Shown: positions 87 through 11,870, numbered from the stretch's first letter. The stretch: 64,000 nucleotides of DNA from Desulfurispira natronophila (GCF_014203025.1 NZ_JACHID010000010.1:12688-76687), one strand, 5' to 3'. The notes: generated by a model from the sequence alone, not told the origin. Made by a program: numbers and translations.

Positions 87-1469
87 ATGCCCACCCGTAA
101 TCAGCAGGCAAGGGAGCGACTGAATCACGTATTGTCCAGGCAGGCGGGTATCAGCGCCGCTGAACTTGCCAGCACGCTGAACATCAGCCTGGCCACTTTC
201 CATCGCCTCCTCAAGGATCGGCAGTCATCCATCCTGGTGACCGGCAAAGCCAGGCGCACGCGCTACGCCCTGCGGCGTCCCCTGCGGGGAGCCCTGAGCG
301 ATATCCCCGTATATCAGATTGACGAACAGGGCCGGATAAGCCCGCTTTCCACCCTGACGCCCGTCTATCCCGGTGGCTGCTGGATGTCCCTGGAAGGCAG
401 TCACTGGCCCGTGGATGACGAACAGCGGCAAGGCTGGTGGGACGGCCTCCCCTACCCGCTCTATCACCTCCAGCCCCAGGGATTTATGGGGCGCAGCTTT
501 GCCCGCGCCGTTCACCAGGCTCTGGAAGTGCCGGATAACCCACTCCTGTGGACCGATGATCAGCTCTTGCATGTGCTGATGCAAAAGGGCAGTGACCTCA
601 GCGGCAATATCATTGTGGGTGATCCCGCCTGCGAACGCTGGCAGCAGGGCAAGCTGAATCCGGTTTCGCCCATCAAGCCAGCAGAGCTGGAAGAACAGTA
701 CATCAACCTGGCTGAACAAGCCCTCAGTTCTGGCGATGCGGGCTCCAGCGCCGCCGGTGAATTCCCAAAATTCACCGCTATGCGCGAGCTGACAGGCAGC
801 GCCACTCCCCATGTTATTGTGAAGTTTTCCGGCGCCGACAAATCGGCAGCCGTTACGCGCTGGCGCGATCTGCTGGTATGCGAACATCTGGCCTTGCAGC
901 ATATTCAGGAATTGCCCGATCAGAGCGCCGCCCCAAGTCGCATCCTGCGCCATAACAACCGGACGTTTCTTGAAGTGGAGCGCTTCGACCGCCATGGACC
1001 GTTTGGCCGCAGCCCACTGATCAGCCTGGAAATTTTCAATGCTGCCCTGCTTGGCAAAGCTCCCGTCGACTGGACACAGCAGGCCGACGAGCTGTTCCGG
1101 GCAGGGCTGATAAGCAACGCACAGAGGGATTCCATCCACCTCCAGTGGTGGTATGGCAAGCTGATTGCCAACAGCGACATGCACCTGGGCAACCTGAGCT
1201 TCCGCCCACAACAGGGAACGCTGCAGCTGACCCCAAGCTACGACATGCTCCCCATGCTCTACGCACCCCTGGCAGGCGGCGAAGTGCCTCCGCGCCAGTT
1301 TGAACCCCCACTGCCCCTGCCACGCCAGCAGCAAACCTGGCTGACCGCCTGCCATGCCGCCATAGGGTTCTGGCTGGAGGCAGCGGAGGACTCGCGCATA
1401 ACCGACGACTTTCGCCAAACAGCCAGGGCGAACGGCCACCGGTTGATGGAACTGAGAGAGAAAATTTAA
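87..1469 (+). CDS. HipA-family Ser/Thr kinase with fused N-terminal helix-turn-helix (YjjJ/HipH-like toxin-type kinase)
   Basis: N-terminal HTH (AELASTLNISLATFHRLLKD) resembling E. coli YjjJ N-terminus; C-terminal HipA catalytic loop motif ANSDMHLGNLSF (HipA D-x-H-x-x-N signature); 460 aa. Confidence 0.7.
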   Translation: MPTRNQQARERLNHVLSRQAGISAAELASTLNISLATFHRLLKDRQSSILVTGKARRTRYALRRPLRGALSDIPVYQIDEQGRISPLSTLTPVYPGGCWMSLEGSHWPVDDEQRQGWWDGLPYPLYHLQPQGFMGRSFARAVHQALEVPDNPLLWTDDQLLHVLMQKGSDLSGNIIVGDPACERWQQGKLNPVSPIKPAELEEQYINLAEQALSSGDAGSSAAGEFPKFTAMRELTGSATPHVIVKFSGADKSAAVTRWRDLLVCEHLALQHIQELPDQSAAPSRILRHNNRTFLEVERFDRHGPFGRSPLISLEIFNAALLGKAPVDWTQQADELFRAGLISNAQRDSIHLQWWYGKLIANSDMHLGNLSFRPQQGTLQLTPSYDMLPMLYAPLAGGEVPPRQFEPPLPLPRQQQTWLTACHAAIGFWLEAAEDSRITDDFRQTARANGHRLMELREKI

Positions 1470-1480
1470 CGGGAAATCTG

Positions 1481-2086
1481 CTATAGTTCCTCGGTCCTGA
1501 ATTCACTATAACCCTCATAAAAATAGCTCACATCAATGCCCTTCATAAACAGGGTGCGGTCATTAATCTGATCGGTCAGGGCTTGTTGCAGCAAAACCAT
1601 GATTTCCACATCTTTCACCGGGCTGCGCTGCATGGCACAGAGGTATTCGTCCTTATCAACCCGGTTCCAGTCCACGACTTGCCTGATGGCGTTTTTCAGC
1701 ATCAGGTCTAGCCAGATGCGAGTGGCGCGGCCATTGCCCTCGCGGAAAGGGTGGGCGATGTTCATCTCCACGTATTTTTCGATAATCTGGTCAAAGGTGT
1801 CCTGTGGCATGGCGTCTATGTTTTTCAGCGCGGCCTCCAGGTACATCAGCGGCACAAAACGGAAATCGCCTTTTGCGATATTCACATCACGGACTTTCCC
1901 GGCAAAGTGATAAATATCGCCAAATAAATAGACATGAATAGAGGCCAGCCCGGCAAAGGTGCCGACTTCCACCTTGTTGATGTCGCCTGAATCGAACAGT
2001 TGTTTGGCCTTTTGCTTGCTGATTTTCTCTTCTGCCTTGGCCAGCTCGATTTGATCGGTGATGCTTAATATGTTTTCCAGGGTCAT
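1481..2086 (-). CDS. Fic family protein (FicT-like AMP-transferase toxin-type, class III with C-terminal inhibitory SxxxEG motif)
   Basis: Fic motif HPFREGNGRATR; C-terminal SYFYEG matches (S/T)xxxE(G/N) inhibitory helix motif; 201 aa; lower-GC coding. Confidence 0.85.
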   Translation of the reverse strand: MTLENILSITDQIELAKAEEKISKQKAKQLFDSGDINKVEVGTFAGLASIHVYLFGDIYHFAGKVRDVNIAKGDFRFVPLMYLEAALKNIDAMPQDTFDQIIEKYVEMNIAHPFREGNGRATRIWLDLMLKNAIRQVVDWNRVDKDEYLCAMQRSPVKDVEIMVLLQQALTDQINDRTLFMKGIDVSYFYEGYSEFRTEEL

Positions 2087-2342
2087 GCCTTATCCCCCCC
2101 AGCTTTTATAACCCTTCGAATTCGAGGGGTTTGGAGTACGGATTGAATTCTGAAACCACGAATGGGCACGAATACACACGAAAATTTCATAACACTATCT
2201 GCTGCTACTCGAGTTTGTGGGGTGAAGTTGAGGATCAGGCCGACATCCAGACCACTAACTGTGAGATAACTTTTATCTTGGCTTTTTCGACGTCTTTGCA
2301 TACCAATTCGTGTTTATTAGTGTTCATTCGTGGTTTGATCAT
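2083..2342 (-). pseudogene. GxxExxY-family (PD-(D/E)XK-like) gene remnant, internally deleted
   Basis: Minus-strand reading gives N-terminus MIKPRMNTNKHELVCKD (matches copy at 3645-4041) then a break; track ORF 2083-2301 retains family-typical C-terminal segment SYLTVSGLDVGLILNF. DNA about 85 percent identical to 3640-3730 and 3990-4045. Confidence 0.45.
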
Positions 2343-2385
2343 CTTCGCCCCAAAGAGCAATCAAGCTCACTCAGCTATTGGCGAG

Positions 2386-3486
2386 TCAAAAGTTGCAAAG
2401 ATAGCTCGTACTCCGCCCTCCACTGTCGCTTTTCCGCAGTAGCCCCTTGTCGATCAAGTCCCGAATGTCTCGGTGTGCCGTATCCTGGGAGCATTTTGTC
2501 ATTTTTGCCCACTTGCTGGTGGTGAGTTTGCCTTTAAAATCGGGCTCAAGTAGCCGCTGCAACATGGCTTGCTGGCGTTGGTTGAGGGGGATGTGGGCAT
2601 TATTGGCCCAGAATTTCTGCCGTTGCAGGATGTGCTGCAGGGTGTGCTCTGCGGTGGCGATGGCGGCCTCCAGGCAGTCCAGAAACCAGCGAATCCAGGA
2701 GGTAATGTCCATGGAGCCTTTCTGGGTAGCCTCCAGGATGTCATAGTACTCCTTGCGTTGAATAAGTATCTGGCTGGAAAGACTGTAAAATCGCTGGTGT
2801 GTGTTTTCGCTGTGGGCGAGGGACATATCGCCAATGGCGCGGGCAATGCGACCATTGCCATCGGCGTAAGGGTGGATGGTCACAAACCAAAGATGGGCGA
2901 TGGCCGCCCGTATGAGAGGTTCCTGATCGCCATGGGAGTTGTGCCACGTCAGAAATCGCTCCATCTCACTGGGAACAACCGAAGCCGGTGGTGCTTCGTA
3001 ATGGACTTTCTCTCGCCCATAGTATCCCGAAACCACCTGCATGGGGCCGTTTTCGTCGGTGCGCCAGGCACCTGTCGGAATGGTGGCAAGCCCGCTGCGG
3101 CCAGTGGGGAAAAGAGCCCCATGCCACGAGTGAAGTCGTTCGCTTGTGAGAGGCAGATGGTAATTTTGGGTGGCATCCAGCATCATTTCCACTACGCCAT
3201 CCACGTGATGGCTGGAGGGGACGAGTCCTCCATGGTTGATTCCCAGTCGCCTGGCGACGGAGGAACGAACCTGCTGGGGATTGAGGATTTCTCCTTCAAT
3301 TTCGCTGGTATGGACTACGTCTTGGGTAAGCGTTTCCATCCAGGCACTTTCCCGCAGGTCAAACCCGATATGCGCCATTTTCCCCAGCAGAATTCCCTGC
3401 TGGTAACGCACCCGCGAAAGGGTTTCTGTCAGCGTATCCAGATGATAGTGCCACGTGGGCCAGTCTTTCTTTTGCCAGATATACAT
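2386..3486 (-). CDS. Fic family protein with Fic_N (DUF4172-like) N-domain and C-terminal wHTH; class II (N-terminal TSEIEG inhibitory motif)
   Basis: Fic motif HPYADGNGRIARA; TSEIEG upstream of core; 366 aa. Confidence 0.85.
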   Translation of the reverse strand: MYIWQKKDWPTWHYHLDTLTETLSRVRYQQGILLGKMAHIGFDLRESAWMETLTQDVVHTSEIEGEILNPQQVRSSVARRLGINHGGLVPSSHHVDGVVEMMLDATQNYHLPLTSERLHSWHGALFPTGRSGLATIPTGAWRTDENGPMQVVSGYYGREKVHYEAPPASVVPSEMERFLTWHNSHGDQEPLIRAAIAHLWFVTIHPYADGNGRIARAIGDMSLAHSENTHQRFYSLSSQILIQRKEYYDILEATQKGSMDITSWIRWFLDCLEAAIATAEHTLQHILQRQKFWANNAHIPLNQRQQAMLQRLLEPDFKGKLTTSKWAKMTKCSQDTAHRDIRDLIDKGLLRKSDSGGRSTSYLCNF

Positions 3487-3644
3487 GGTTCACCGTAGTA
3501 GAGATGAGCGGCAGGTTGCGGAAAAGTCATCTGTGACGCTATCTCCACTGCCTGATTCGCGGTTTTTTTAGCAGGCCACCAGGCGCATTCTCCGCAAAAA
3601 ACACGGAGAATGCAAGCCTATTCTCCGCACAGCACACGAACTCT

Positions 3645-4041
3645 TCATAGCACTATCCGTTGCCACTCAAGTTTGGGGTGCTTGAAGTTAAGGATCAGAC
3701 CGACATTCAGGCCACTAATCTTGAGATAATTGATTATCTGGGCTATTTCGATATTGCCGATTTCCTCAATGTTTTGTGTCAACAATGATTTTGTCGAAGA
3801 CGATTAGGTCGGGAATATACTCTCCCACATTCAGTGATTTGTAGATAACAGGGAATCGGGGTTGTTGTGCATAGGGAATATCCTGTCGCCGAAATTCGAC
3901 GACGAGGGCGTTTTCATAGGGCTTTTCCAATAAACCATGACCAAGCGTGTTCAGCACTTTCAGCGCACAGCCAACAATTTGATATACCTCGTCTTTGCAT
4001 ACCAATTTGTGTTTATTCGTGTCCATTTGTGGTTTTATCAT
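3645..4041 (-). pseudogene. GxxExxY-family protein gene, apparently frameshifted (ORF 3766-4041 = 91 aa N-terminal part; conserved C-terminus in another frame)
   Basis: ORF contains GHGLLEKPYENAL (GxxExxY motif). Downstream, in a different frame on the same strand, 3645-3760 encodes ...EEIGNIEIAQIINYLKISGLNVGLILNFKHPKLEWQRIVL, the typical family C-terminus. Either a frameshift mutation or a sequencing error. Confidence 0.5.
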
Positions 4042-4052
4042 CCAGCCGCTCG

Positions 4053-7000
4053 TCAGCTTTCCGACTCAAGGGGCTGCAGCAGGTTCATCAGGTCATCGGC
4101 ATTGAACTGCAGGTCGGCTTCGCCGGAGCGGTTGCCGTACATACTGTCGGCGAGTGACTGTTTGCGCTGCTGCAGGTTGAGGATTTTTTCCTCCACTGTC
4201 TGCTCCGTCAGCAGTTTGTAGACAAAGACCGGTTTGTCCTGTCCGATGCGGTGGGCCCGGTCGGTGGCCTGATTCTCTGCAGCGGGGTTCCACCACGGGT
4301 CGTAGTGGATGACGGTGTCAGCAGCGGTGAGGTTCAGCCCGGTACCGCCGGCTTTGAGGGCGATGAGAAAGACCCTGGCGTCGCCATTCTGGAAGCGATC
4401 AATAGCTTCGTCCCGCTTGCGGGTCTGGCCGGTCAGCTTGGTGTAGGGAATCTGACACTCAATCAGTTCATTTTCGATGATACCCAGCATGGTAGTGAAT
4501 TGAGAAAATATCAGGATTTTGCGCTCCTCTGCCACCATGGGCTGCAACAAGCTCATCAGCAGATCCATCTTGGCAGATTGCTTGACACTGCGGGCCTGCT
4601 CCAGTTTTACCAGGCGGGGATCACAGCAGGTCTGGCGCAGCTTCAGCAGCGCATCCAGTATGGTGATCTGGCTGCGGTTAAATCCCTGCTGGTTGATGGC
4701 TTTGCGTACCTGCTGGTCCATGGCCAGACGAACGGACTCATAGAGGTCCCGCTGTTTCCCCTGCAGGGCGACGGTGCGGACAATTTCGGTTTTAGCCGGC
4801 AGCTCCTGGGCTACCTCCTGCTTGGTGCGGCGCAGCATGAAAGGGGTGACGCGCTGGCGCAGCTGTTGTTGACGCTCAGTGTCGTGCTGCTTTTCAATCG
4901 GGTTGCGGAATATGCGGGTAAACTCCTGCTGGGTTCCGAGGAAGCCGGGCATGAGGAAGTTGAACATGGACCACAACTCACCCAGGTGGTTCTCCATGGG
5001 AGTGCCGGTCAGGCACAGGCGGTGGTTGGCCTCCAGGCGCCCTATCAACCGGGTCGTTTTGGTATTGGCGTTCTTGATATACTGGGCTTCGTCCAGAATG
5101 ACGTAGTGAAAGGGCTGTTTGGCCAGCCGCTTGCTGTCACGGTTGATGAGGGGGTAGGTAGTGACCACCAGGTCGTAGTCTGCCAGATTGTCCAGCTGCT
5201 GGTGGCGCTCACTGCCATGGGAGATACATACGCGCAGATCCGGCGCAAAGCGCAGCGCTTCGTTGCGCCAGTTGCTCATCAGGCTGGTGGGAGCAATTAC
5301 CAGGCTGGGCAGCTGGCCCCGTCCGCTGTTCTTTTCCACCTGCAGGCAGGCCAGTACCTGCAGGGTTTTCCCCAGGCCCATGTCATCGGCCAGAATGCCG
5401 CTGAAGCCATACTCACGCAGGAACTGCAGCCAGTCCAGGCCCTTGTGCTGGTAATCCCGCAGGGTGGCCTGCAGGTTTTGTGGAACCTCCACTGGTTTGA
5501 TGCCCGAGAAACGGCTGAGCCTGTGGGCAATTTCCTGCAGCTGGCGGGCTCCCTGCCACTGGGTCTTTTCATCCTCCAGCAGCTCACCCAGGCTGGCAGC
5601 ACGAGGGCGGGAGAGCGTCAAGCTGCCGTCCTTGTTCAGGCTGCTCTTGTTATACAGCTCGGAAAGGCAGTGCAGGATGTGCTGTATGCGACTGGACTCA
5701 ATGCGGATCCAGCGGTTTTCGTCCAGCTTGGCATACACGTGCTCCATATCTTCCAGCGACTGCAGAAAGTGATCGCCTCCTCCCTGATTATGCAGGACGT
5801 CTATCAAAGTCGGCAGCAGGTTAATGTGCAGGTCGCCAACCTCAAAGCCCAGGCTCAGGTCAAACCAGCCGGAGCTGTGCTCCTGGATCTCCCCCTGAAA
5901 GTGACCCGCGTCATCAATCTGCAGAGAGAATCCCGAAGCGTGCTCAACCTGCCAACCCTCCTGCTTGAGCTGCTCCACGCCCTTTTCCAGAAACTCTGCC
6001 CAGACACACAGTTGACTTTCGTTCGCCGATACCCTGGCTACCATATCAAGGGGCCCCAGGTGCTCGTCTGAGCCGTCAGTGCTGGTGAAGCCCAACTCCT
6101 GCAGAGTGCTCAGAGCCATGATTTCAAAGTCCAGATCGCGATAGATGCGCTTGCGCTGGCCATCGGCGTGGATAATTACCGTGGGCTCGCTACCCAGGGA
6201 GTCCAGCTCATGGTCACCATAGACAAAGCGCAAAGAGGCCACATACAGGCTGGGAGTTTGGGCGTGGCAGTGCAGCCGCAGACGGGCCACCGGACTGTGA
6301 TAAACATCGACAATAGTGGCAGCCGCCACAGTGGCCGGAGTGGGTATTTCCGTATTTGGAAAGAGCTTGAGAAGCTCCTTGCTGACCTTTTTGGCCATGG
6401 CAGCCGGAATAGTGGGAGCCATCAGCATTCGGGATGTGTCGGCACCAGACAGACCATTGTAGTGGAGAGTACCGCAGCAGTTGCCCGGACCATCGAAGTA
6501 GTAGAGGGTGTCGCCGATGAGAAAGTGATCGGTGATGATTCTATTTTCTGAGCTGTAGCGCAGCTGGTAGCTGTTGCTCTTGGTATCGTGTTTCCAGCTT
6601 AGCGAAAGTGTGCGATCTTCAGCCGCAATAACCGGAAAAAACCTGTTGTCCCACTCCTGTGGATGGCACCAGTAGGCCTTGTCTATGGAGAAAAGATTGT
6701 GCAGGACATCGGTGTCCTCCTCTTCAGTCAGCAGCGCTGCTCCATTGTGTATCCTGGCTCCCCGTAATTGACGCAGAATGGTTTTATCTGACCTGGAATA
6801 ATCCGTAAAACTATCAACATAATCCTGAACTATGGCCATATCACGCAGGGGTAGGTATTGAAGGCGCTTTCCCAGGAGCCCGGATTTGAGTATATTTACC
6901 TCGCACACAAAAACACTGATATAGCGATAGGCAGGACTGTCCTGCACAGGATCAAGCAGATAGATCAGGGTTTTGTTCACGGCAGTGGAGGGATCCTTGG

Positions 7001-7436
7001 AGGTGGGTGCAGTTTTTTTCTCAGTGAGCGACAGAAGCCACTGAGCCACCTGCCTGTCCTGCTGAACCTTGGGGCGCTCGTGCCGGTGGTTTTGGACGTA
7101 TCCGAACTCAAGTAGTGTTGCCACAGAGTGCTTGCACCAGGAACCAACCGGACAACTGCAAGAGGCATTGAAAACCGTTCTGCTGCCGGCAGCAATAACC
7201 ACTACGGTGCTGTACTGCCAGGTTCCTGTTACTTTTGCGCGTAAAATGAGAACGTTTGAGTCCTTTTGGTGAGGTCCCAGAACCTTTTCCCACTGCTCCT
7301 TTTCCAGGAGAACCTTCCCGTTTTTCCAGTACTGGTAACCCCGCTGGATGCTCTGATTGGTAAATACCTTTTTTAAGTTGCTGTAGCCTATTCCGGCCCA
7401 CCCTGCCAGTGAGGATATCTCTTCTGATTGTTCCAT
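4053..7436 (-). CDS. SNF2-family (Swi2/Snf2) DNA-dependent ATPase/helicase with N-terminal SWIM zinc finger
   Basis: SWIM CxCx(n)CxH: SCSCPVGSWCKHSVATLLEF; SNF2_N motifs ILADDMGLGKTLQVLA (Walker A), DEAQYIKN (DExx), LTGTPMENHLGELWSMFNFL; helicase C-terminal domain; 1127 aa. Confidence 0.85.
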   Translation of the reverse strand: MEQSEEISSLAGWAGIGYSNLKKVFTNQSIQRGYQYWKNGKVLLEKEQWEKVLGPHQKDSNVLILRAKVTGTWQYSTVVVIAAGSRTVFNASCSCPVGSWCKHSVATLLEFGYVQNHRHERPKVQQDRQVAQWLLSLTEKKTAPTSKDPSTAVNKTLIYLLDPVQDSPAYRYISVFVCEVNILKSGLLGKRLQYLPLRDMAIVQDYVDSFTDYSRSDKTILRQLRGARIHNGAALLTEEEDTDVLHNLFSIDKAYWCHPQEWDNRFFPVIAAEDRTLSLSWKHDTKSNSYQLRYSSENRIITDHFLIGDTLYYFDGPGNCCGTLHYNGLSGADTSRMLMAPTIPAAMAKKVSKELLKLFPNTEIPTPATVAAATIVDVYHSPVARLRLHCHAQTPSLYVASLRFVYGDHELDSLGSEPTVIIHADGQRKRIYRDLDFEIMALSTLQELGFTSTDGSDEHLGPLDMVARVSANESQLCVWAEFLEKGVEQLKQEGWQVEHASGFSLQIDDAGHFQGEIQEHSSGWFDLSLGFEVGDLHINLLPTLIDVLHNQGGGDHFLQSLEDMEHVYAKLDENRWIRIESSRIQHILHCLSELYNKSSLNKDGSLTLSRPRAASLGELLEDEKTQWQGARQLQEIAHRLSRFSGIKPVEVPQNLQATLRDYQHKGLDWLQFLREYGFSGILADDMGLGKTLQVLACLQVEKNSGRGQLPSLVIAPTSLMSNWRNEALRFAPDLRVCISHGSERHQQLDNLADYDLVVTTYPLINRDSKRLAKQPFHYVILDEAQYIKNANTKTTRLIGRLEANHRLCLTGTPMENHLGELWSMFNFLMPGFLGTQQEFTRIFRNPIEKQHDTERQQQLRQRVTPFMLRRTKQEVAQELPAKTEIVRTVALQGKQRDLYESVRLAMDQQVRKAINQQGFNRSQITILDALLKLRQTCCDPRLVKLEQARSVKQSAKMDLLMSLLQPMVAEERKILIFSQFTTMLGIIENELIECQIPYTKLTGQTRKRDEAIDRFQNGDARVFLIALKAGGTGLNLTAADTVIHYDPWWNPAAENQATDRAHRIGQDKPVFVYKLLTEQTVEEKILNLQQRKQSLADSMYGNRSGEADLQFNADDLMNLLQPLESES

Positions 7437-7596
7437 AAGTGTACTCTTTTAGCGTAGTTTGTGAGGACAGTATGATACTGGGCAGCATAGCAGAATGCCG
7501 GAAAAAAAGCAGCTAGAACCAGTGATATACCTGGGGAGGGCAAGAAACATACTCATGCAATTCAGGATATGGTACAAAGTGCTGCAGGAGTGATGT

Positions 7597-8004
7597 ATGC
7601 AGCCCATTGACGTTACCTGCGCCATTATCGAACGTGATGACCAGATACTCATAGCCCAGCGCAGTGAGTCCATGTCTCTGCCGCTGAAATGGGAGTTTCC
7701 CGGAGGTAAAATCCGTGCCGGTGAAAGTCCTTCCGATTGCCTGGTGCGTGAAATTGATGAGGAGCTGGGGGTGAAAGTCACGGTTGTGGCTGCCCTCCCT
7801 TTGGTGACCCATCACTATCCGGAAATCGCTGTTACTCTGCATCCTTTCGTTTGTACTCAGATCAGCGGCGATCTCGTGCTGGCAGAACACGTTGACTGCT
7901 GCTGGGTAAACCTTGAAAGTTTAAGCAGTTATGATCTGGCGGCAGCGGATATTCCCGTTGTGCAAAGCTATGCCCGCTATCGCCGGAATGAGAGGGCAGA
8001 GTGA
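7597..8004 (+). CDS. NUDIX hydrolase (MutT-like nucleoside triphosphate pyrophosphohydrolase)
   Basis: Nudix box GGKIRAGESPSDCLVREIDEELGV (GX5EX7REUXEEXGU); 135 aa; stop overlaps next gene start (ATGA at 8001-8004). Confidence 0.85.
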   Translation: MQPIDVTCAIIERDDQILIAQRSESMSLPLKWEFPGGKIRAGESPSDCLVREIDEELGVKVTVVAALPLVTHHYPEIAVTLHPFVCTQISGDLVLAEHVDCCWVNLESLSSYDLAAADIPVVQSYARYRRNERAE

Positions 8005-11000
8005 AGAACCAGCAGGGGTTTTACGAGCAGGTTATCTATGAATTACTGCAGAGTGAAATCAGTCGCTTGCCGGCAGATTCGTGGCAAGTGGAAAAGGCTG
8101 CAATAGATAAGGCTGATTCACACGAAATACTGGCGGACTACCTGGCAGGGCTTATCAAAAAAGCTTTCCAGTCACTGCCACAGCAGGGTCGACTGGAAAG
8201 GCAAATCCAGTTGGCAAACGATATCATTGATCGCCTTCAGCGCAGTGAAAACATGCAAGAATTTGAGTCCTTCAAGGTTTCCAAAGAAGCCAAGGTACTG
8301 CACAGCATTCTACATATCTCACAGCTTCAGCCTAAAACCCGGCCGGTAAGCGGCCTCAGTCAGTGCTCTCTCTTTACTGGCGCAGCCATGGAACCAAGTC
8401 TTGCCAGTGAGCTGCAGAAGGAAATTGCCACATCTCACCGCATAGATATTCTCATGTCCTTTATCCGCTGGAGTGGTCTGCGAATAATCGCCGATGAACT
8501 TATTGACTTCACCCAAAATAGGGGTGGGCACTTGCGCATTATCACCACCACCTATATGGGGGCGACAGAAATCGCCGCTCTGAACTTCTTGAGTAAACTC
8601 CCCAACACCGAGATACGCGTTTCTACCGACAACAAGCGCACACGTTTGCACGCTAAGGCCTACTACTTCTACCGTAACACGGGGTTTTCCACCGCCTATG
8701 TGGGCTCATCCAATATTTCGAATCCCGCTTTGACCACCGGGCTCGAGTGGAACATGAAGATATCCCAAGTCCATGAACCCCATATCTTAAAGAAATTTGA
8801 GGGCACCTTTGAGAGCTACTGGAATAGCCCTGACTTCCTCGCATACTCTGCAGAATCTCATAAAGAAATAGCTGAATCCCTTGAGTCATACTCAGGCAAG
8901 CAAAGTGAATCAGCGGCCTTTCAGTTTGATATCAGACCATACCCTTTCCAAAAAGAAATTTTAGAAAAACTCCAAGCAGAGCGTGAGGTCCACGACAAGT
9001 GGAAAAACTTAGTGGTCGCAGCAACGGGTACCGGCAAGACCGTCATCGCTGCTTTTGACTTCAAGCGCTTTCGTGAAAAATACCCCCAAGCTCGCTTTCT
9101 CTTTATTGCACACCGTCAAGAAATTCTTACCCAGAGCCTCTACTGTTTTCGAGGCATATTGCGAGATCAGAATTTTGGGGAACTCTTTGTGGGCAACCAT
9201 ACTCCCAACCAGTTTAACCATCTCTTTGTTTCGGTGCAGATGCTCCACTCCCAGCAGCTCTGGCGCAAACTTCCCAAGGATCACTACGACTACATTGTGG
9301 TTGATGAATTCCACCACGCTGAAGCCAACACCTATCGCCAATCCCTCACCTTCTTCACCCCCAAGATACTGCTTGGGCTGACCGCCACACCTGAGCGAAT
9401 GGATGGTGGCGACATTCTGGGCTACTTTGACAATCGCATAGCGGCAGAAATTCGCCTGCCGGAAGCGATTGAGCGGGGCCTATTGGCACCATTTCAGTAT
9501 TTTGGCGTAAGTGACTCAACCAACTACAAGAATTTAACATGGAGCCGAGGGGGATATAAGAACTCAGAGCTGGAAAGGCTACTCACTGGCAATGACCTGC
9601 GACTTCAAATTGTTCTCAACGCACTGGAAAAGTATATTCCTTCGCAGGAAAACGTGGTGGGACTTGGCTTTTGTGTCAGCGTTGCCCACGCCGAATACAT
9701 GGCAGAGGCCTTTTGCCAGCGAAGTATCCCTGCCGCTGCCTTGACCTCACATTCAGATGCCGCAACCCGTGAGCAAGCAAGAAATCAACTGGAACGAAGA
9801 GAGATCAGGTTTATTTTCACCGTTGACCTGTTCAATGAGGGCGTCGATATTCCTGCCGTCAATACCGTGCTCTTCTTGCGTCCAACGGAAAGCCTGACCA
9901 TATTTTTGCAGCAACTTGGCCGCGGGCTTCGACTCTATGAAGGCAAAGAGTGCCTGACGGTTCTCGATTTTATCGGGCAAGCTCATCAGAGTTTTCGCTA
10001 TGATCAGCGCTTTCGCGCCCTTGTGGGACGTACAAACGCCGCCGTTCAGCGGGAAGTGGAAGAAAGCTTCCCGCACTTACCCAGTGGATGCGTCATTAAA
10101 CTGGAGCGTACCGCCAAAGAGCACGTCCTAAATAACATTCGCTCCGCCATCAGCAACAACCGACGCGCACTGGTACGGCAAATAGCCAATTTCGAAGTGG
10201 AGTACCGTCAGCCACTCTCTTTGCAACATTTCGTGGAAGCGTATCAGCTTGATTTGAGCGCACTATATCGTAGAGGAAACTGGTCTGAACTCTGCGCTGA
10301 TGCCGGGGTCATCCAAGAGTACAACGATCCCCATCGAAAGTATTTTGCCAGTGCCATGAAGCGTATCTTGCACTTCGATTCGCGACGCATGATCCAAGCG
10401 CTACAAGCGATTCTGGATGGGAAAACCCCAGCAGCCGGGCAAACCAATACCCTCTTGCAGCATATGCTTTACATCAGTATCTGGCAAAAGCCACTTGACT
10501 CCCACGGCTTTTCAACGCTTCAAGAAGCTTGGCAGTGCTTGCGGGATAATCGGCAAGTAGTTTCAGAAATGCGCCAACTCCTGAAACTGCTCCACCACTC
10601 AATTCATTTTGTCGATACCCCACCAAATTTGCCATTTGAGTGCCCACTGGACTTACACTGTCACTACACCAGAGATGAAATACTTGCCGCCTTGGGTGAG
10701 GCCTCGCCAACAGCTATTCCGGCCTTCCGTGAAGGCGTTAGGTACGTGAAGCACAGCAATACGGACGTTCTCTTGGTTACACTCAACAAATCCGAAGAAC
10801 ACTATTCGCCAACAACCATGTACGATGACTATGCCATCAGTGAAGAGCTTTTCCACTGGCAATCGCAAAGCACGACTTCGGTAGAGTCACCCACTGGACA
10901 GCGCTATCTCAGGGGAACCAGTAATGTTTTGCTGTTTGTGCGCGAGAACAAGAAAGTTGATGGAATTACCATGCCCTATTGCTTTTTAGGACCAGTACAA

Positions 11001-11105
11001 TATGCTCGACATGATGGCAGCAAGCCAATTAGCATTGTGTGGAAGCTCAAGCACTCGCTCCCAGCTCAACTATGGCGAGAGACCGGCAGACTGGCGGCAG
11101 TGTAA
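8001..11105 (+). CDS. Fusion protein: N-terminal phospholipase-D-family (HKD) nuclease domain + SF2 DEAD/DEAH (ResIII-like) helicase + C-terminal DUF3427-like region
   Basis: HKD motif RLHAKAYYFY...GSSNISN; Walker A ATGTGKT; motif II DEFHHAE; helicase C region (VDLFNEGVDIP, QQLGRGLR); long C-terminal extension typical of DUF3427 helicases; 1034 aa. Confidence 0.8.
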   Translation: MKNQQGFYEQVIYELLQSEISRLPADSWQVEKAAIDKADSHEILADYLAGLIKKAFQSLPQQGRLERQIQLANDIIDRLQRSENMQEFESFKVSKEAKVLHSILHISQLQPKTRPVSGLSQCSLFTGAAMEPSLASELQKEIATSHRIDILMSFIRWSGLRIIADELIDFTQNRGGHLRIITTTYMGATEIAALNFLSKLPNTEIRVSTDNKRTRLHAKAYYFYRNTGFSTAYVGSSNISNPALTTGLEWNMKISQVHEPHILKKFEGTFESYWNSPDFLAYSAESHKEIAESLESYSGKQSESAAFQFDIRPYPFQKEILEKLQAEREVHDKWKNLVVAATGTGKTVIAAFDFKRFREKYPQARFLFIAHRQEILTQSLYCFRGILRDQNFGELFVGNHTPNQFNHLFVSVQMLHSQQLWRKLPKDHYDYIVVDEFHHAEANTYRQSLTFFTPKILLGLTATPERMDGGDILGYFDNRIAAEIRLPEAIERGLLAPFQYFGVSDSTNYKNLTWSRGGYKNSELERLLTGNDLRLQIVLNALEKYIPSQENVVGLGFCVSVAHAEYMAEAFCQRSIPAAALTSHSDAATREQARNQLERREIRFIFTVDLFNEGVDIPAVNTVLFLRPTESLTIFLQQLGRGLRLYEGKECLTVLDFIGQAHQSFRYDQRFRALVGRTNAAVQREVEESFPHLPSGCVIKLERTAKEHVLNNIRSAISNNRRALVRQIANFEVEYRQPLSLQHFVEAYQLDLSALYRRGNWSELCADAGVIQEYNDPHRKYFASAMKRILHFDSRRMIQALQAILDGKTPAAGQTNTLLQHMLYISIWQKPLDSHGFSTLQEAWQCLRDNRQVVSEMRQLLKLLHHSIHFVDTPPNLPFECPLDLHCHYTRDEILAALGEASPTAIPAFREGVRYVKHSNTDVLLVTLNKSEEHYSPTTMYDDYAISEELFHWQSQSTTSVESPTGQRYLRGTSNVLLFVRENKKVDGITMPYCFLGPVQYARHDGSKPISIVWKLKHSLPAQLWRETGRLAAV

Positions 11106-11130: not shown

Positions 11131-11472
11131 ATGAACATTTGGTTTGAGTACCTTTACCGGGATGCTGGTAATAATAAAATATGGGGCGAAGTGGTTTTTT
11201 GCAACACAAAGACATTTTCCACCGAAGAACTTGAAACGCTGATAAGAAGTAGCCTTATTGATGGCGAGTTCTTTGACCCGGATGGCCTTGGATTGCCTGA
11301 GTTACAGTTTGACTCGTGGGACAGTGAGTTGGATCACGGCTGGTATGAGTATAATTGTGTAGCAACAACGGACAATGCTCCCACTGACGAGAAAGGGCGT
11401 GATATCGGCGACTTTATCACTGATCTTCAGGCATCCACTAAAATCGTTAATCAGATTATAAAGAGAGAGTAA
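11131..11472 (+). CDS. hypothetical small protein (113 aa), co-oriented 25 bp downstream of PLD-helicase gene
   Basis: ORF with GGAGG-like RBS (cgggaggcagaaaacttATG); acidic C-terminal half; no recognisable domain. Confidence 0.4.
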   Translation: MNIWFEYLYRDAGNNKIWGEVVFCNTKTFSTEELETLIRSSLIDGEFFDPDGLGLPELQFDSWDSELDHGWYEYNCVATTDNAPTDEKGRDIGDFITDLQASTKIVNQIIKRE

Positions 11473-11483
11473 CCGAGAACACC

Positions 11484-11870
11484 ATGATACAGTGGACAGA
11501 ACCGCATGAATCCTGGATGAATGACTGGAAGATGGGGCTTTCACCTTCCGAGGAGGAAGAGATATCAAGAGCATTGCTGGAAATTTTCCGGCAATTCTGG
11601 CACTGGGCCGAGCTGGACAAGAAGGCGAAAGTGACACAGCGCAGGTACGGTGCTTCTCTGCATGCCCTTGGTGGCTGGGCTGTGGAAAAGATGCTTGAAG
11701 ACGAGGAACTGCAGGAGCCGGGGTATGTTCGACCGAGCCTTTATCAGCTGCTGGTGGATGCTACATTCCTGCAAGGGCCTTTGATCCACTATGATAATAA
11801 AAAGTGGCAGAGTGAGGTCGATACCGTATGCCGGAAGCTGCACAAGTTTCTGGTATCGCGGGGTGAGTAA
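11484..11870 (+). CDS. hypothetical protein (128 aa), 11 bp downstream of previous ORF
   Basis: Compact spacing suggests same operon; no recognisable domain. Confidence 0.4.
   Translation: MIQWTEPHESWMNDWKMGLSPSEEEEISRALLEIFRQFWHWAELDKKAKVTQRRYGASLHALGGWAVEKMLEDEELQEPGYVRPSLYQLLVDATFLQGPLIHYDNKKWQSEVDTVCRKLHKFLVSRGE

Follow-up and report, generated by a model that had tools for sequence, protein, structure and literature searches.

Why is the gene for a small NUDIX hydrolase joined, by overlapping stop and start codons, to the gene for a large nuclease-helicase? The question is raised by a stretch of 64,000 nucleotides (nt) from Desulfurispira natronophila (GCF_014203025.1, NZ_JACHID010000010.1:12688-76687; this whole stretch is hereafter the window, and positions are counted from its first letter), in which a NUDIX gene at 7597-8004 directly precedes, on the plus strand, a gene at 8001-11105 that encodes a protein with PLD nuclease, helicase and DUF3427 domains. 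A previous sequence-only reading had placed both open reading frames (ORFs) at these coordinates and had assigned these domains, and both the ORF scan and Pfam bear it out; what that reading missed is the identity of the large protein, a homolog of SauUSI, the type IV (modification-dependent) restriction enzyme of Staphylococcus aureus. We propose, giving the idea about an even chance of being correct, that the SauUSI-type enzyme is co-expressed with a NUDIX hydrolase that removes modified dCTP, either for self-protection of the host or for starvation of phages with modified cytosine.

The large protein (1034 amino acids (aa); 100% identical to a D. natronophila protein) matches the Pfam families PLDc_2 (1.6e-11), ResIII (4.3e-35), Helicase_C (4.7e-12) and DUF3427 (6.1e-25), the PADLOC model of type IV methyl-directed restriction enzymes, mREase_IV (1.6e-245), and the sequence of the S. 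aureus SauUSI structure, 7CLG (5.7e-87). SauUSI requires ATP and cleaves DNA that carries 5-methylcytosine (5mC) or 5-hydroxymethylcytosine (5hmC) (PMC3141236); its C-terminal domain of the SRA fold flips out 5mC, the ATPase translocates on DNA, and the PLD domain cleaves (PMC7913695). The functional residues of SauUSI, namely the PLD catalytic residues as named in PMC3141236 and the 5mC pocket residues Y831, F841, I842, D858 and W868 from PMC7913695, were mapped onto the window enzyme through an alignment of 45 sequences. In the PLD-family nuclease domain (8433-8822), H217, K219, N238 and E249 match SauUSI H119, K121, N139 and E150 and are conserved in all 44 family members without a gap at these columns. 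The superfamily 2 (SF2) helicase-like ATPase/translocase (ResIII plus Helicase_C, 8931-10016) retains the invariant motifs ATGTGKT (Walker A), DEFHH, TATP and QQLGRGLR. The DUF3427 region (10335-11081), which comprises a coupler and the SRA-like 5mC-reading domain, carries D943 and W953 as the counterparts of SauUSI D858 and W868, conserved in 42 of the 42 members with a residue there; the pocket residues F841 and I842 are replaced by L925 and V926, respectively, and the counterpart of Y831 is ambiguous, the alignment giving V913 with an invariant Y915 two residues off, in a C-terminal part that is only about 25% identical. Taken by its sequence, the large protein is a SauUSI homolog and a type IV restriction enzyme, predicted to depend on 5mC or 5hmC; this predicted specificity follows from the conserved catalytic and pocket residues, and the underlying biochemistry is that of S. 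aureus SauUSI.

The window enzyme represents a long form of the family. Its conserved N-terminal extension of about 140 aa (8001-8420) has no Pfam match and is absent from S. aureus SauUSI, such that the alignment with 7CLG begins at residue 148; short-form homologs start at about position 138 of the hidden Markov model (HMM). Long-form homologs with this extension, about 1035-1050 aa long, occur in many phyla, and both long and short forms are found paired with NUDIX genes.

The start of the enzyme gene is secure. The GTG at 8001 is the first start codon past an in-frame stop and the next start codon does not occur before codon 6, whereas 16 homologs of 1035-1071 aa align with the window enzyme from the first residues, with G6, Y8, E9 and I12 invariant; because the homologs keep the N-terminus from residue 6 and no alternative start lies earlier, this GTG is the sole possible start. 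The overlap at 8001-8004 had been read as ATGA; a 4-nt overlap is indeed there, one base different, as GTGA, in which GTG starts the restriction enzyme and TGA (8002-8004) stops the 135-aa NUDIX frame. Shine-Dalgarno-like sequences precede both genes: AGGAG (7586-7590), 6 nt 5' of the NUDIX ATG, and GAGAGGG (7990-7996), within the 3' end of the NUDIX gene and 4 nt 5' of the GTG. Overlaps of 4 nt between stop and start codons are the commonest type in bacterial operons, so this one is unremarkable by itself; its recurrence with a NUDIX partner exceeds chance. The suggestion of co-translation stands in part: the genes form a tight operon-like pair, and the geometry of the GTGA overlap indicates that their translation is probably coupled. 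A scan for promoter and terminator consensus sequences found nothing between the genes and no convincing promoter 5' of the NUDIX gene, which is weak evidence for this phylum. The GC content of the pair is about 0.48-0.51, compared to about 0.58 in the flanks, and this lower value suggests that the two genes arrived jointly by horizontal transfer.

The earlier remark that a functional pair of this kind is not established does not take account of published work. A conserved MutT/NUDIX gene (SAUSA300_2432) linked to SauUSI was described by Xu et al. in 2011, along with "at least 60" linked pairs (PMC3141236), and Monk et al. in 2012 showed that deletion of the NUDIX gene in S. aureus Newman did not give a transformable phenotype (PMC3312211), so that the NUDIX protein is not required for restriction by SauUSI. 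The NUDIX family has also been catalogued as a single-gene candidate, PDC-S07, in PADLOC; here, a full-length match to this model is paired with a restriction enzyme. In the literature searched, no function has been assigned to the NUDIX protein beside SauUSI since the first note in 2011, and no published mechanism ties NUDIX hydrolases to type IV restriction or to 5-hydroxymethyl-dCTP. The pair as such is thus known since 2011, and the window adds a distant, long-form example from Chrysiogenota; what is new in the present analysis is the pairing frequencies, the evidence of repeated re-association and a specific substrate hypothesis. The likeness to the S. aureus pair (SAUSA300_2431/2432) is close: there, too, the NUDIX gene lies directly upstream on the same strand and encodes a protein of the same clade, and SauUSI has the same PLD nuclease, SF2 ATPase and DUF3427/SRA architecture with the catalytic and 5mC-pocket residues conserved. 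The differences are a 1-nt gap in S. aureus compared to the 4-nt overlap with a GTG start in the window, the length of SauUSI (953 aa), which lacks the N-terminal region, and a helicase identity of only about 25-40% between S. aureus and the Chrysiogenota host of the window.

The frequency of the association was assessed in both directions. The forward sample consisted of 80 loci with SauUSI-like genes, one per species, from genome assemblies (74 evaluable upstream and 68 downstream), in which six-frame ORFs were compared with an HMM built from 120 homologs of the window NUDIX protein. A NUDIX gene of this clade directly adjoins 16 of the 80 SauUSI-like genes, 10 times upstream on the same strand and 6 times downstream (once on the opposite strand), and elsewhere in the 4-kb flanks on either side there were one clear NUDIX match and one weak one. 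Bacillota, Bacteroidota and one proteobacterial metagenome-assembled genome (MAG) account for the linked loci; no NUDIX gene adjoins the archaeal and actinobacterial SauUSI-like genes in this sample. NUDIX is by far the dominant partner because, among the 111 immediate neighbors of the 64 NUDIX-less SauUSI-like genes, no Pfam family occurs more than three times. In the reverse sample of 80 metagenome loci seeded with NUDIX alone, 28 of which were too short to judge, 19 of the 53 informative NUDIX-clade loci (36%) adjoin a SauUSI-like gene and 34 are unlinked; for the two closest homologs of the window NUDIX protein (P0002 and P0004), the contigs end right after the NUDIX gene and are uninformative on neighbors. 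The count that the sequence-only reading had called for thus reveals a pairing well beyond the window.

Altogether, adjacency of NUDIX and SauUSI-like genes was found in S. aureus and at least 35 other loci besides the window, and the pairing spans Bacillota, Bacteroidota, Pseudomonadota and Chrysiogenota as well as plasmids. The 4-nt ATGA/GTGA overlap occurs in at least nine loci (L028, L047, L067, L068, L097, L111, L114, L119 and L167/L168, the last with the start as placed by the gene caller), and at other loci the genes overlap by 7-20 nt or lie 1-12 nt apart. The closest relatives of the window helicase, 55% identical, carry the NUDIX pair in a different neighborhood, where a histidine kinase gene lies upstream and mfd downstream; a different context is seen for the pair with the 4-nt overlap in L167; and plasmid-borne pairs are present on a Chondrinema plasmid (L170) and a mobilizable Hymenobacter plasmid (L173). 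The cassette moves as a unit, given its presence in these other contexts, on plasmids and in S. aureus.

Within the cassette, the partners appear to be exchanged. In the NUDIX tree, linked proteins cluster, 61 of the 78 nearest neighbors sharing the linkage status compared to 38 +/- 5.6 in permutations, and a Mantel test of NUDIX against helicase distances gave no significant correlation (rho 0.06). Individual pairs are strikingly discordant: between L156 and L142, the NUDIX proteins are 87% identical and the helicases 43%, whereas the reverse holds for L014 and L013 (helicase 83%, NUDIX 33%) and for L027 and L024 (helicase 79%, NUDIX 37%), with the L027 NUDIX gene on the opposite strand. These discordant identities, together with the lack of an overall correlation of distances, indicate that the association has been rebuilt repeatedly, with variable gene order and swapped partners, which we read as a signature of selection for the pairing rather than of accident or inheritance. 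An absence of any functional tie, with adjacency reflecting inherited synteny or hitch-hiking in defense islands, could draw on the same lack of correlation and on the fact that only 20% of the SauUSI-like genes have an adjoining NUDIX gene; we consider it extremely improbable, given the enrichment in both directions (16/80 and 19/53), the rank of NUDIX as by far the commonest neighbor, the varying gene order, the swapped partners and the conserved stop/start overlaps, and given that the missing correlation itself argues for repeated re-association under selection, not inheritance.

Several loci depart from the intact arrangement. In L090 and L113, only a short C-terminal piece of a SauUSI-like gene lies past an intact NUDIX gene, and in L088 the SauUSI-like helicase is broken in two. 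The restriction genes of these loci seem to have decayed while the NUDIX gene was kept, and some unlinked NUDIX genes may derive from linked ones. In a Thalassotalea MAG (L055, 4001-8523), the helicase match spans 4.5 kb instead of the usual approximately 3.1 kb, which suggests an insertion (an intein or a mobile element) within the gene.

What, then, does the NUDIX protein hydrolyze? The 135-aa protein, 100% identical to a D. natronophila protein in a protein search (a nucleotide comparison with E. coli genomes gave no match), matches Pfam NUDIX_4 (2.7e-20) and NUDIX (5.4e-19; 69 bits against a cut-off of 21.1). Its Nudix box, residues G37-V59 (7705-7773, plus strand; GKIRAGESPSDCLVREIDEELGV), conforms to GX5EX7REUXEEXGU in a regular-expression match, such that the catalytic motif is intact; among 20 homologs, G37, E43, R51, E52, E55 and E56 are invariant and G58 is nearly so. 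The full-length match to PDC-S07 (160 bits, 5e-48) pairs residues 1-127 with positions 3-130 of the 135-position model, and the best NCBIfam family is NudG, a pyrimidine (d)NTP diphosphatase, aligned end-to-end (1-133 of 135). The best match in PDB is 5X1X (named "mutator mutT protein"; 42% identical), which is 99% identical to the SauUSI-adjacent NUDIX protein of S. aureus; a literature search on "5X1X" returned nothing relevant. A phage collection yielded only distant NUDIX relatives plus short unannotated records labeled Staphylococcus phage.

Among the characterized relatives, two point to modified cytosine nucleotides. Q5LBB1 of Bacteroides fragilis (PDB 3GWY; 5.5e-21 to the window protein) hydrolyzes 5-methyl-CTP and 5-methyl-dCTP, as well as 5-hydroxymethyl-dCTP, with kcat/Km of 4-7 x 10^6 M-1 s-1 and canonical nucleoside triphosphates (NTPs) with much lower values, and Escherichia coli NudG prefers 5-methyl-dCTP (1.3 x 10^6) to CTP (4.7 x 10^4) about 28-fold (PMC5158307). 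Both resemble the window NUDIX protein in length, single-domain architecture, end-to-end alignment and the WEF/YEF-PGGK segment, and Q5LBB1 additionally shares an H-x-YP-(D/E)-hydrophobic-x-hydrophobic-T-hydrophobic-H motif; E33 and D118 are conserved relative to NudG, and Asp118 belongs to an ADxP motif common to the window protein, NudG, Q5LBB1 and the S. aureus enzyme. Unlike the window gene, those for Q5LBB1 and NudG stand alone (the nudG neighborhood shows ynjH), and the identity to the window protein is only 34-39%.

The sequence-only reading had allowed that the gene might be an ordinary mutT found at this position in close relatives only, and the evidence goes against this. E. coli MutT shares with the window protein the NUDIX fold, the Nudix box, a similar length and 128 aligned residues; it is only 28% identical, and the window protein falls below both MutT equivalog cut-offs (85.2 against 97.9 for TIGR00586 and 78.7 against 148 for PRK10776). 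Asp118 aligns to Asn119 of E. coli MutT (sequence checked against 1MUT), a residue that we take to read the 8-oxoguanine base. Missed cut-offs, Asp118 in place of Asn119, and pairing across phyla and plasmids together indicate that this is not an ordinary mutT. A broader version, in which a MutT-like house-cleaning enzyme acting on 8-oxo-dGTP or 2-OH-dATP limits mutagenesis at break repair, or shares the operon by chance, has more in its favor: many relatives are annotated as 8-oxo-dGTP diphosphatase MutT in the sources, MutT models in NCBIfam still match the window protein at 3.6e-24, the top PDB matches bear the mutator name, many clade members lie in housekeeping contexts, and Table 3 of PMC5158307 gives 2-OH-dATP as a likely physiological substrate of NudG, from knockout and overexpression genetics. 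We nevertheless judge an antimutator role to be decidedly unlikely, in view of the missed MutT cut-offs, the low identity and the Asp for Asn119 replacement, and because a housekeeping gene is not expected to be re-paired with the same partner in both orders and on plasmids or to have the low GC content that suggests joint arrival with the restriction enzyme.

Substrates other than deoxynucleoside triphosphates (dNTPs), such as RNA 5' ends, NAD or ADP-ribose caps, dinucleoside polyphosphates or a signal nucleotide, by which the NUDIX protein would regulate the enzyme or its mRNA, seem highly unlikely. The window protein does match Bdellovibrio RppH (PDB 3EES) at 1.1e-17, along with weak matches to RppH and NAD diphosphatase models, all of which fall well short of the matches to NudG and MutT-type NTPases; the operon includes no cyclase or signal synthase, which leaves the "nucleotide signal" part of the earlier suggestion without support, and the NUDIX gene is dispensable for restriction in S. 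aureus. Breakdown of pyrophosphate, on which Xu et al. speculated in 2011 (PMC3141236), belongs to the same class of explanations. We reject it on biochemical grounds. When helicases hydrolyze ATP, they release ADP and phosphate instead of pyrophosphate, and inorganic pyrophosphatase is not an activity of NUDIX enzymes.

The best-supported reading of the pair, which upholds the part of the earlier suggestion that concerned removal of modified nucleotides, is therefore the one stated at the outset: the preferred substrates of NudG and Q5LBB1 are the triphosphates of exactly those bases that SauUSI-type enzymes read in DNA, and hence removal of modified dCTP is proposed as the role of the linked NUDIX protein. 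The two genes would be transcribed together, with translation coupled via the GTGA overlap. The restriction enzyme would read flipped-out 5mC or 5hmC with its SRA-like domain, translocate with ATP and cut with the PLD nuclease, and the NUDIX protein would hydrolyze 5-methyl- and 5-hydroxymethyl-dCTP, an activity shown for Q5LBB1 and NudG and predicted here. With the modified precursors cleared, the polymerase would write no 5mC or 5hmC into host DNA and the chromosome would be spared by the enzyme; the risk would be highest during breakdown and salvage of restricted methylated DNA. The same activity could starve phages that build their genomes from 5-hydroxymethyl-dCTP or 5-methyl-dCTP. Between these two outcomes, we consider self-protection somewhat more likely. 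An accessory, safety role fits the dispensability of the S. aureus NUDIX gene for restriction, and the patchy distribution of the NUDIX gene fits as well, because other genomes may use a stand-alone NudG-like gene, as Bacteroides appears to do.

Several observations weigh against this proposal. The score of the window NUDIX protein with the NCBIfam NudG model PRK10546 (107.6) is below the cut-off of 156, and R72 and R77 of NudG, which are presumably important, are not conserved in the HMMER alignment. Its identity to the S. aureus enzyme, NudG and Q5LBB1 is only 34-42%, and a Bartonella "MutT", at 37%, is about as close to the window protein as these three, which makes the transfer of substrate at the family level weak. 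The measured activities come from relatives that are not linked to SauUSI (the neighbors of the Q5LBB1 gene are a DprA-like gene and helix-turn-helix genes), many members of the NUDIX clade occur in housekeeping contexts (SurE, Era, YceG), and about 80% of the SauUSI-like genes have no adjacent NUDIX gene. To our knowledge, conversion of salvaged 5-methyl-dCMP to 5-methyl-dCTP at meaningful rates is not established in bacteria. Finally, the NUDIX deletion mutant of S. aureus was obtained with no defect reported (PMC3312211), so that a protective role would be conditional at most.

The strongest competitor to removal of modified dCTP for the benefit of the host is that the NUDIX protein (PDC-S07) is a stand-alone anti-phage effector that depletes a phage-specific nucleotide, for instance 5-hydroxymethyl-dCTP or 5-methyl-dCTP, or some other metabolite of the phage, and that acts in synergy with the enzyme instead of shielding the host from it. 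In PADLOC, the family is entered as a candidate for phage defense, the PDC entries being candidates found through "guilt by embedding" in other defense systems, including BREX, DISARM and type I restriction-modification systems (bioRxiv 10.1101/2024.01.29.577857); neither "PDC-S07" nor "NUDIX" appears in the main text and 11 supplementary files of that preprint. The NUDIX clade also adjoins dGTPase-like, GajB-like, PDC-S41 and HNH genes, the island of the window pair also holds SoFic and PDC-S04 Fic genes, and Q5LBB1 hydrolyzes 5-hydroxymethyl-dCTP as well as 5-methyl-dCTP. On balance, we regard such an effector as unlikely: PDC systems are by definition only candidates, clusters of independent defense genes are loose, in contrast to the stop/start overlaps found here across phyla, removal of the modification precursor also removes the target of the enzyme, which makes synergy not obvious, and the literature searched contains no phage-challenge data for the NUDIX protein.

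The proposed removal of modified dCTP is analogous in its logic, destruction of a nucleotide triphosphate before the polymerase can use it, to bacterial dCTP deaminase and dGTPase defenses and to human DCTPP1, which in human cells restricts 5-methyl-dCTP and influences genomic methylation (PMC4491611). These dNTP-pool enzymes belong to families other than NUDIX (MazG-like, HD, deaminase). The known bacterial systems of this kind exhaust canonical dNTPs and bring the cell to a halt; the NUDIX enzyme as proposed would act selectively on modified dCTP and do the host no harm.

In the window, the pair lies at the edge of a defense- or toxin-like island (87-7436). Its genes are those for a HipA_C kinase (87-1469) and, on the minus strand, for a Fic protein (1481-2086; PADLOC PDC-S04, 3.5e-103), a DUF4172-Fic protein (2386-3486; SoFic, 1.3e-49) and an SNF2 and SWIM helicase (4053-7436), the last divergent from the NUDIX gene and identified with Pfam and PADLOC. 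The GC content falls from about 0.58 to about 0.49 across 6.5-11.5 kb of the window. The strong match of the SNF2-SWIM helicase to one PADLOC DpdE model (801 bits) finds no confirmation in NCBIfam DpdE (score 56, cut-off 500); the helicase was rejected as a member of the cassette because no homolog lies beside the pair in any other locus, and it serves as context only. Directly downstream of the restriction enzyme, on the plus strand, are two small ORFs (11131-11472 and 11484-11870), the first of which begins 25 nt past the stop of the enzyme gene, with GGGAGG as its ribosome-binding site; neither has a Pfam or PADLOC match or a homolog in any fetched locus, and their membership in the cassette is doubtful.

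The NUDIX clade has other recurrent partners. In seven loci (L133, L134, L137, L141, L147, L149 and L157), an HSDR_N_2 (PD-(D/E)XK-like) protein of 150-185 aa is encoded upstream of the NUDIX gene. L133 and L141 have a gap of about 190-200 nt between the two genes, and in the other five loci the spacing lies between a 4-nt overlap and a 9-nt gap; a convergent alpha/beta-hydrolase gene is located downstream of the NUDIX gene in five of the seven. This HSDR_N_2 family is not among the top PADLOC families. On a Priestia megaterium plasmid (NZ_CP137803; L172, 4992-6199), a NUDIX gene annotated as "mutT" overlaps by 4 nt the gene for a 274-aa HNH endonuclease with an uncharacterized N-terminal part of about 200 aa, and in L106 and L140 the NUDIX gene is convergent with genes for HNH_2 proteins of about 300 aa, that of L140 with a sub-threshold SAD_SRA match (3e-4); these three may be further pairings of NUDIX proteins with modification-dependent nucleases. 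Other tight same-strand neighbors (L087, 5453-7375; L098, 5396-6235; L110, 5378-8626; L139 and L143) include a 641-aa SWIM zinc-finger protein (with a 4-nt overlap), a Bpu10I-like restriction endonuclease, a 1083-aa UvrD/GajB-like helicase and dGTPase-like HD proteins, the last in L139 and L143. For the reading of modified dCTP as the substrate, the nuclease partners (the L140 HNH_2, Priestia HNH, Bpu10I-like and HSDR_N_2-like proteins) offer weak side support. HIT proteins immediately adjoin 2 of the 64 NUDIX-less SauUSI-like genes, and on the Hymenobacter plasmid the NUDIX-SauUSI pair has an HNH and HIT pair (L173, 2126-3511) at a distance of 1.5 kb; HIT plus nuclease may be an analogous arrangement of a nuclease with a nucleotide hydrolase.

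A wider generalization, which we put forward as a speculation considerably more apt to fail than to hold, is that modification-dependent restriction enzymes recurrently recruit a hydrolase for the matching modified nucleotide (5-methyl- or 5-hydroxymethyl-dCTP), as a two-layer arrangement in which the NUDIX protein would guard against autoimmunity by excluding modified cytosine from host DNA and would selectively starve phages with hypermodified genomes, including glucosylated ones that escape the nuclease. If true, this would amount to nucleotide-depletion immunity that is harmless to the host and aimed at a phage-specific metabolite, and the pairs of NUDIX with HNH, NUDIX with SRA-like HNH_2 and HIT with nuclease would be further cases of one principle.

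In S. aureus, SauUSI forms the chief obstacle to genetic manipulation and to horizontal gene transfer, and relatives of SauUSI are found across bacteria and in some archaea; knowing what the accessory NUDIX protein does would inform strain engineering, and such enzymes would be useful as reagents to remove or measure modified dCTP. If the NUDIX protein is a sanitizer of 5-methyl- and 5-hydroxymethyl-dCTP, this would explain how carriers of modification-dependent nucleases avoid marking their own DNA through salvage, and it could reveal a selective defense that starves modified phages.

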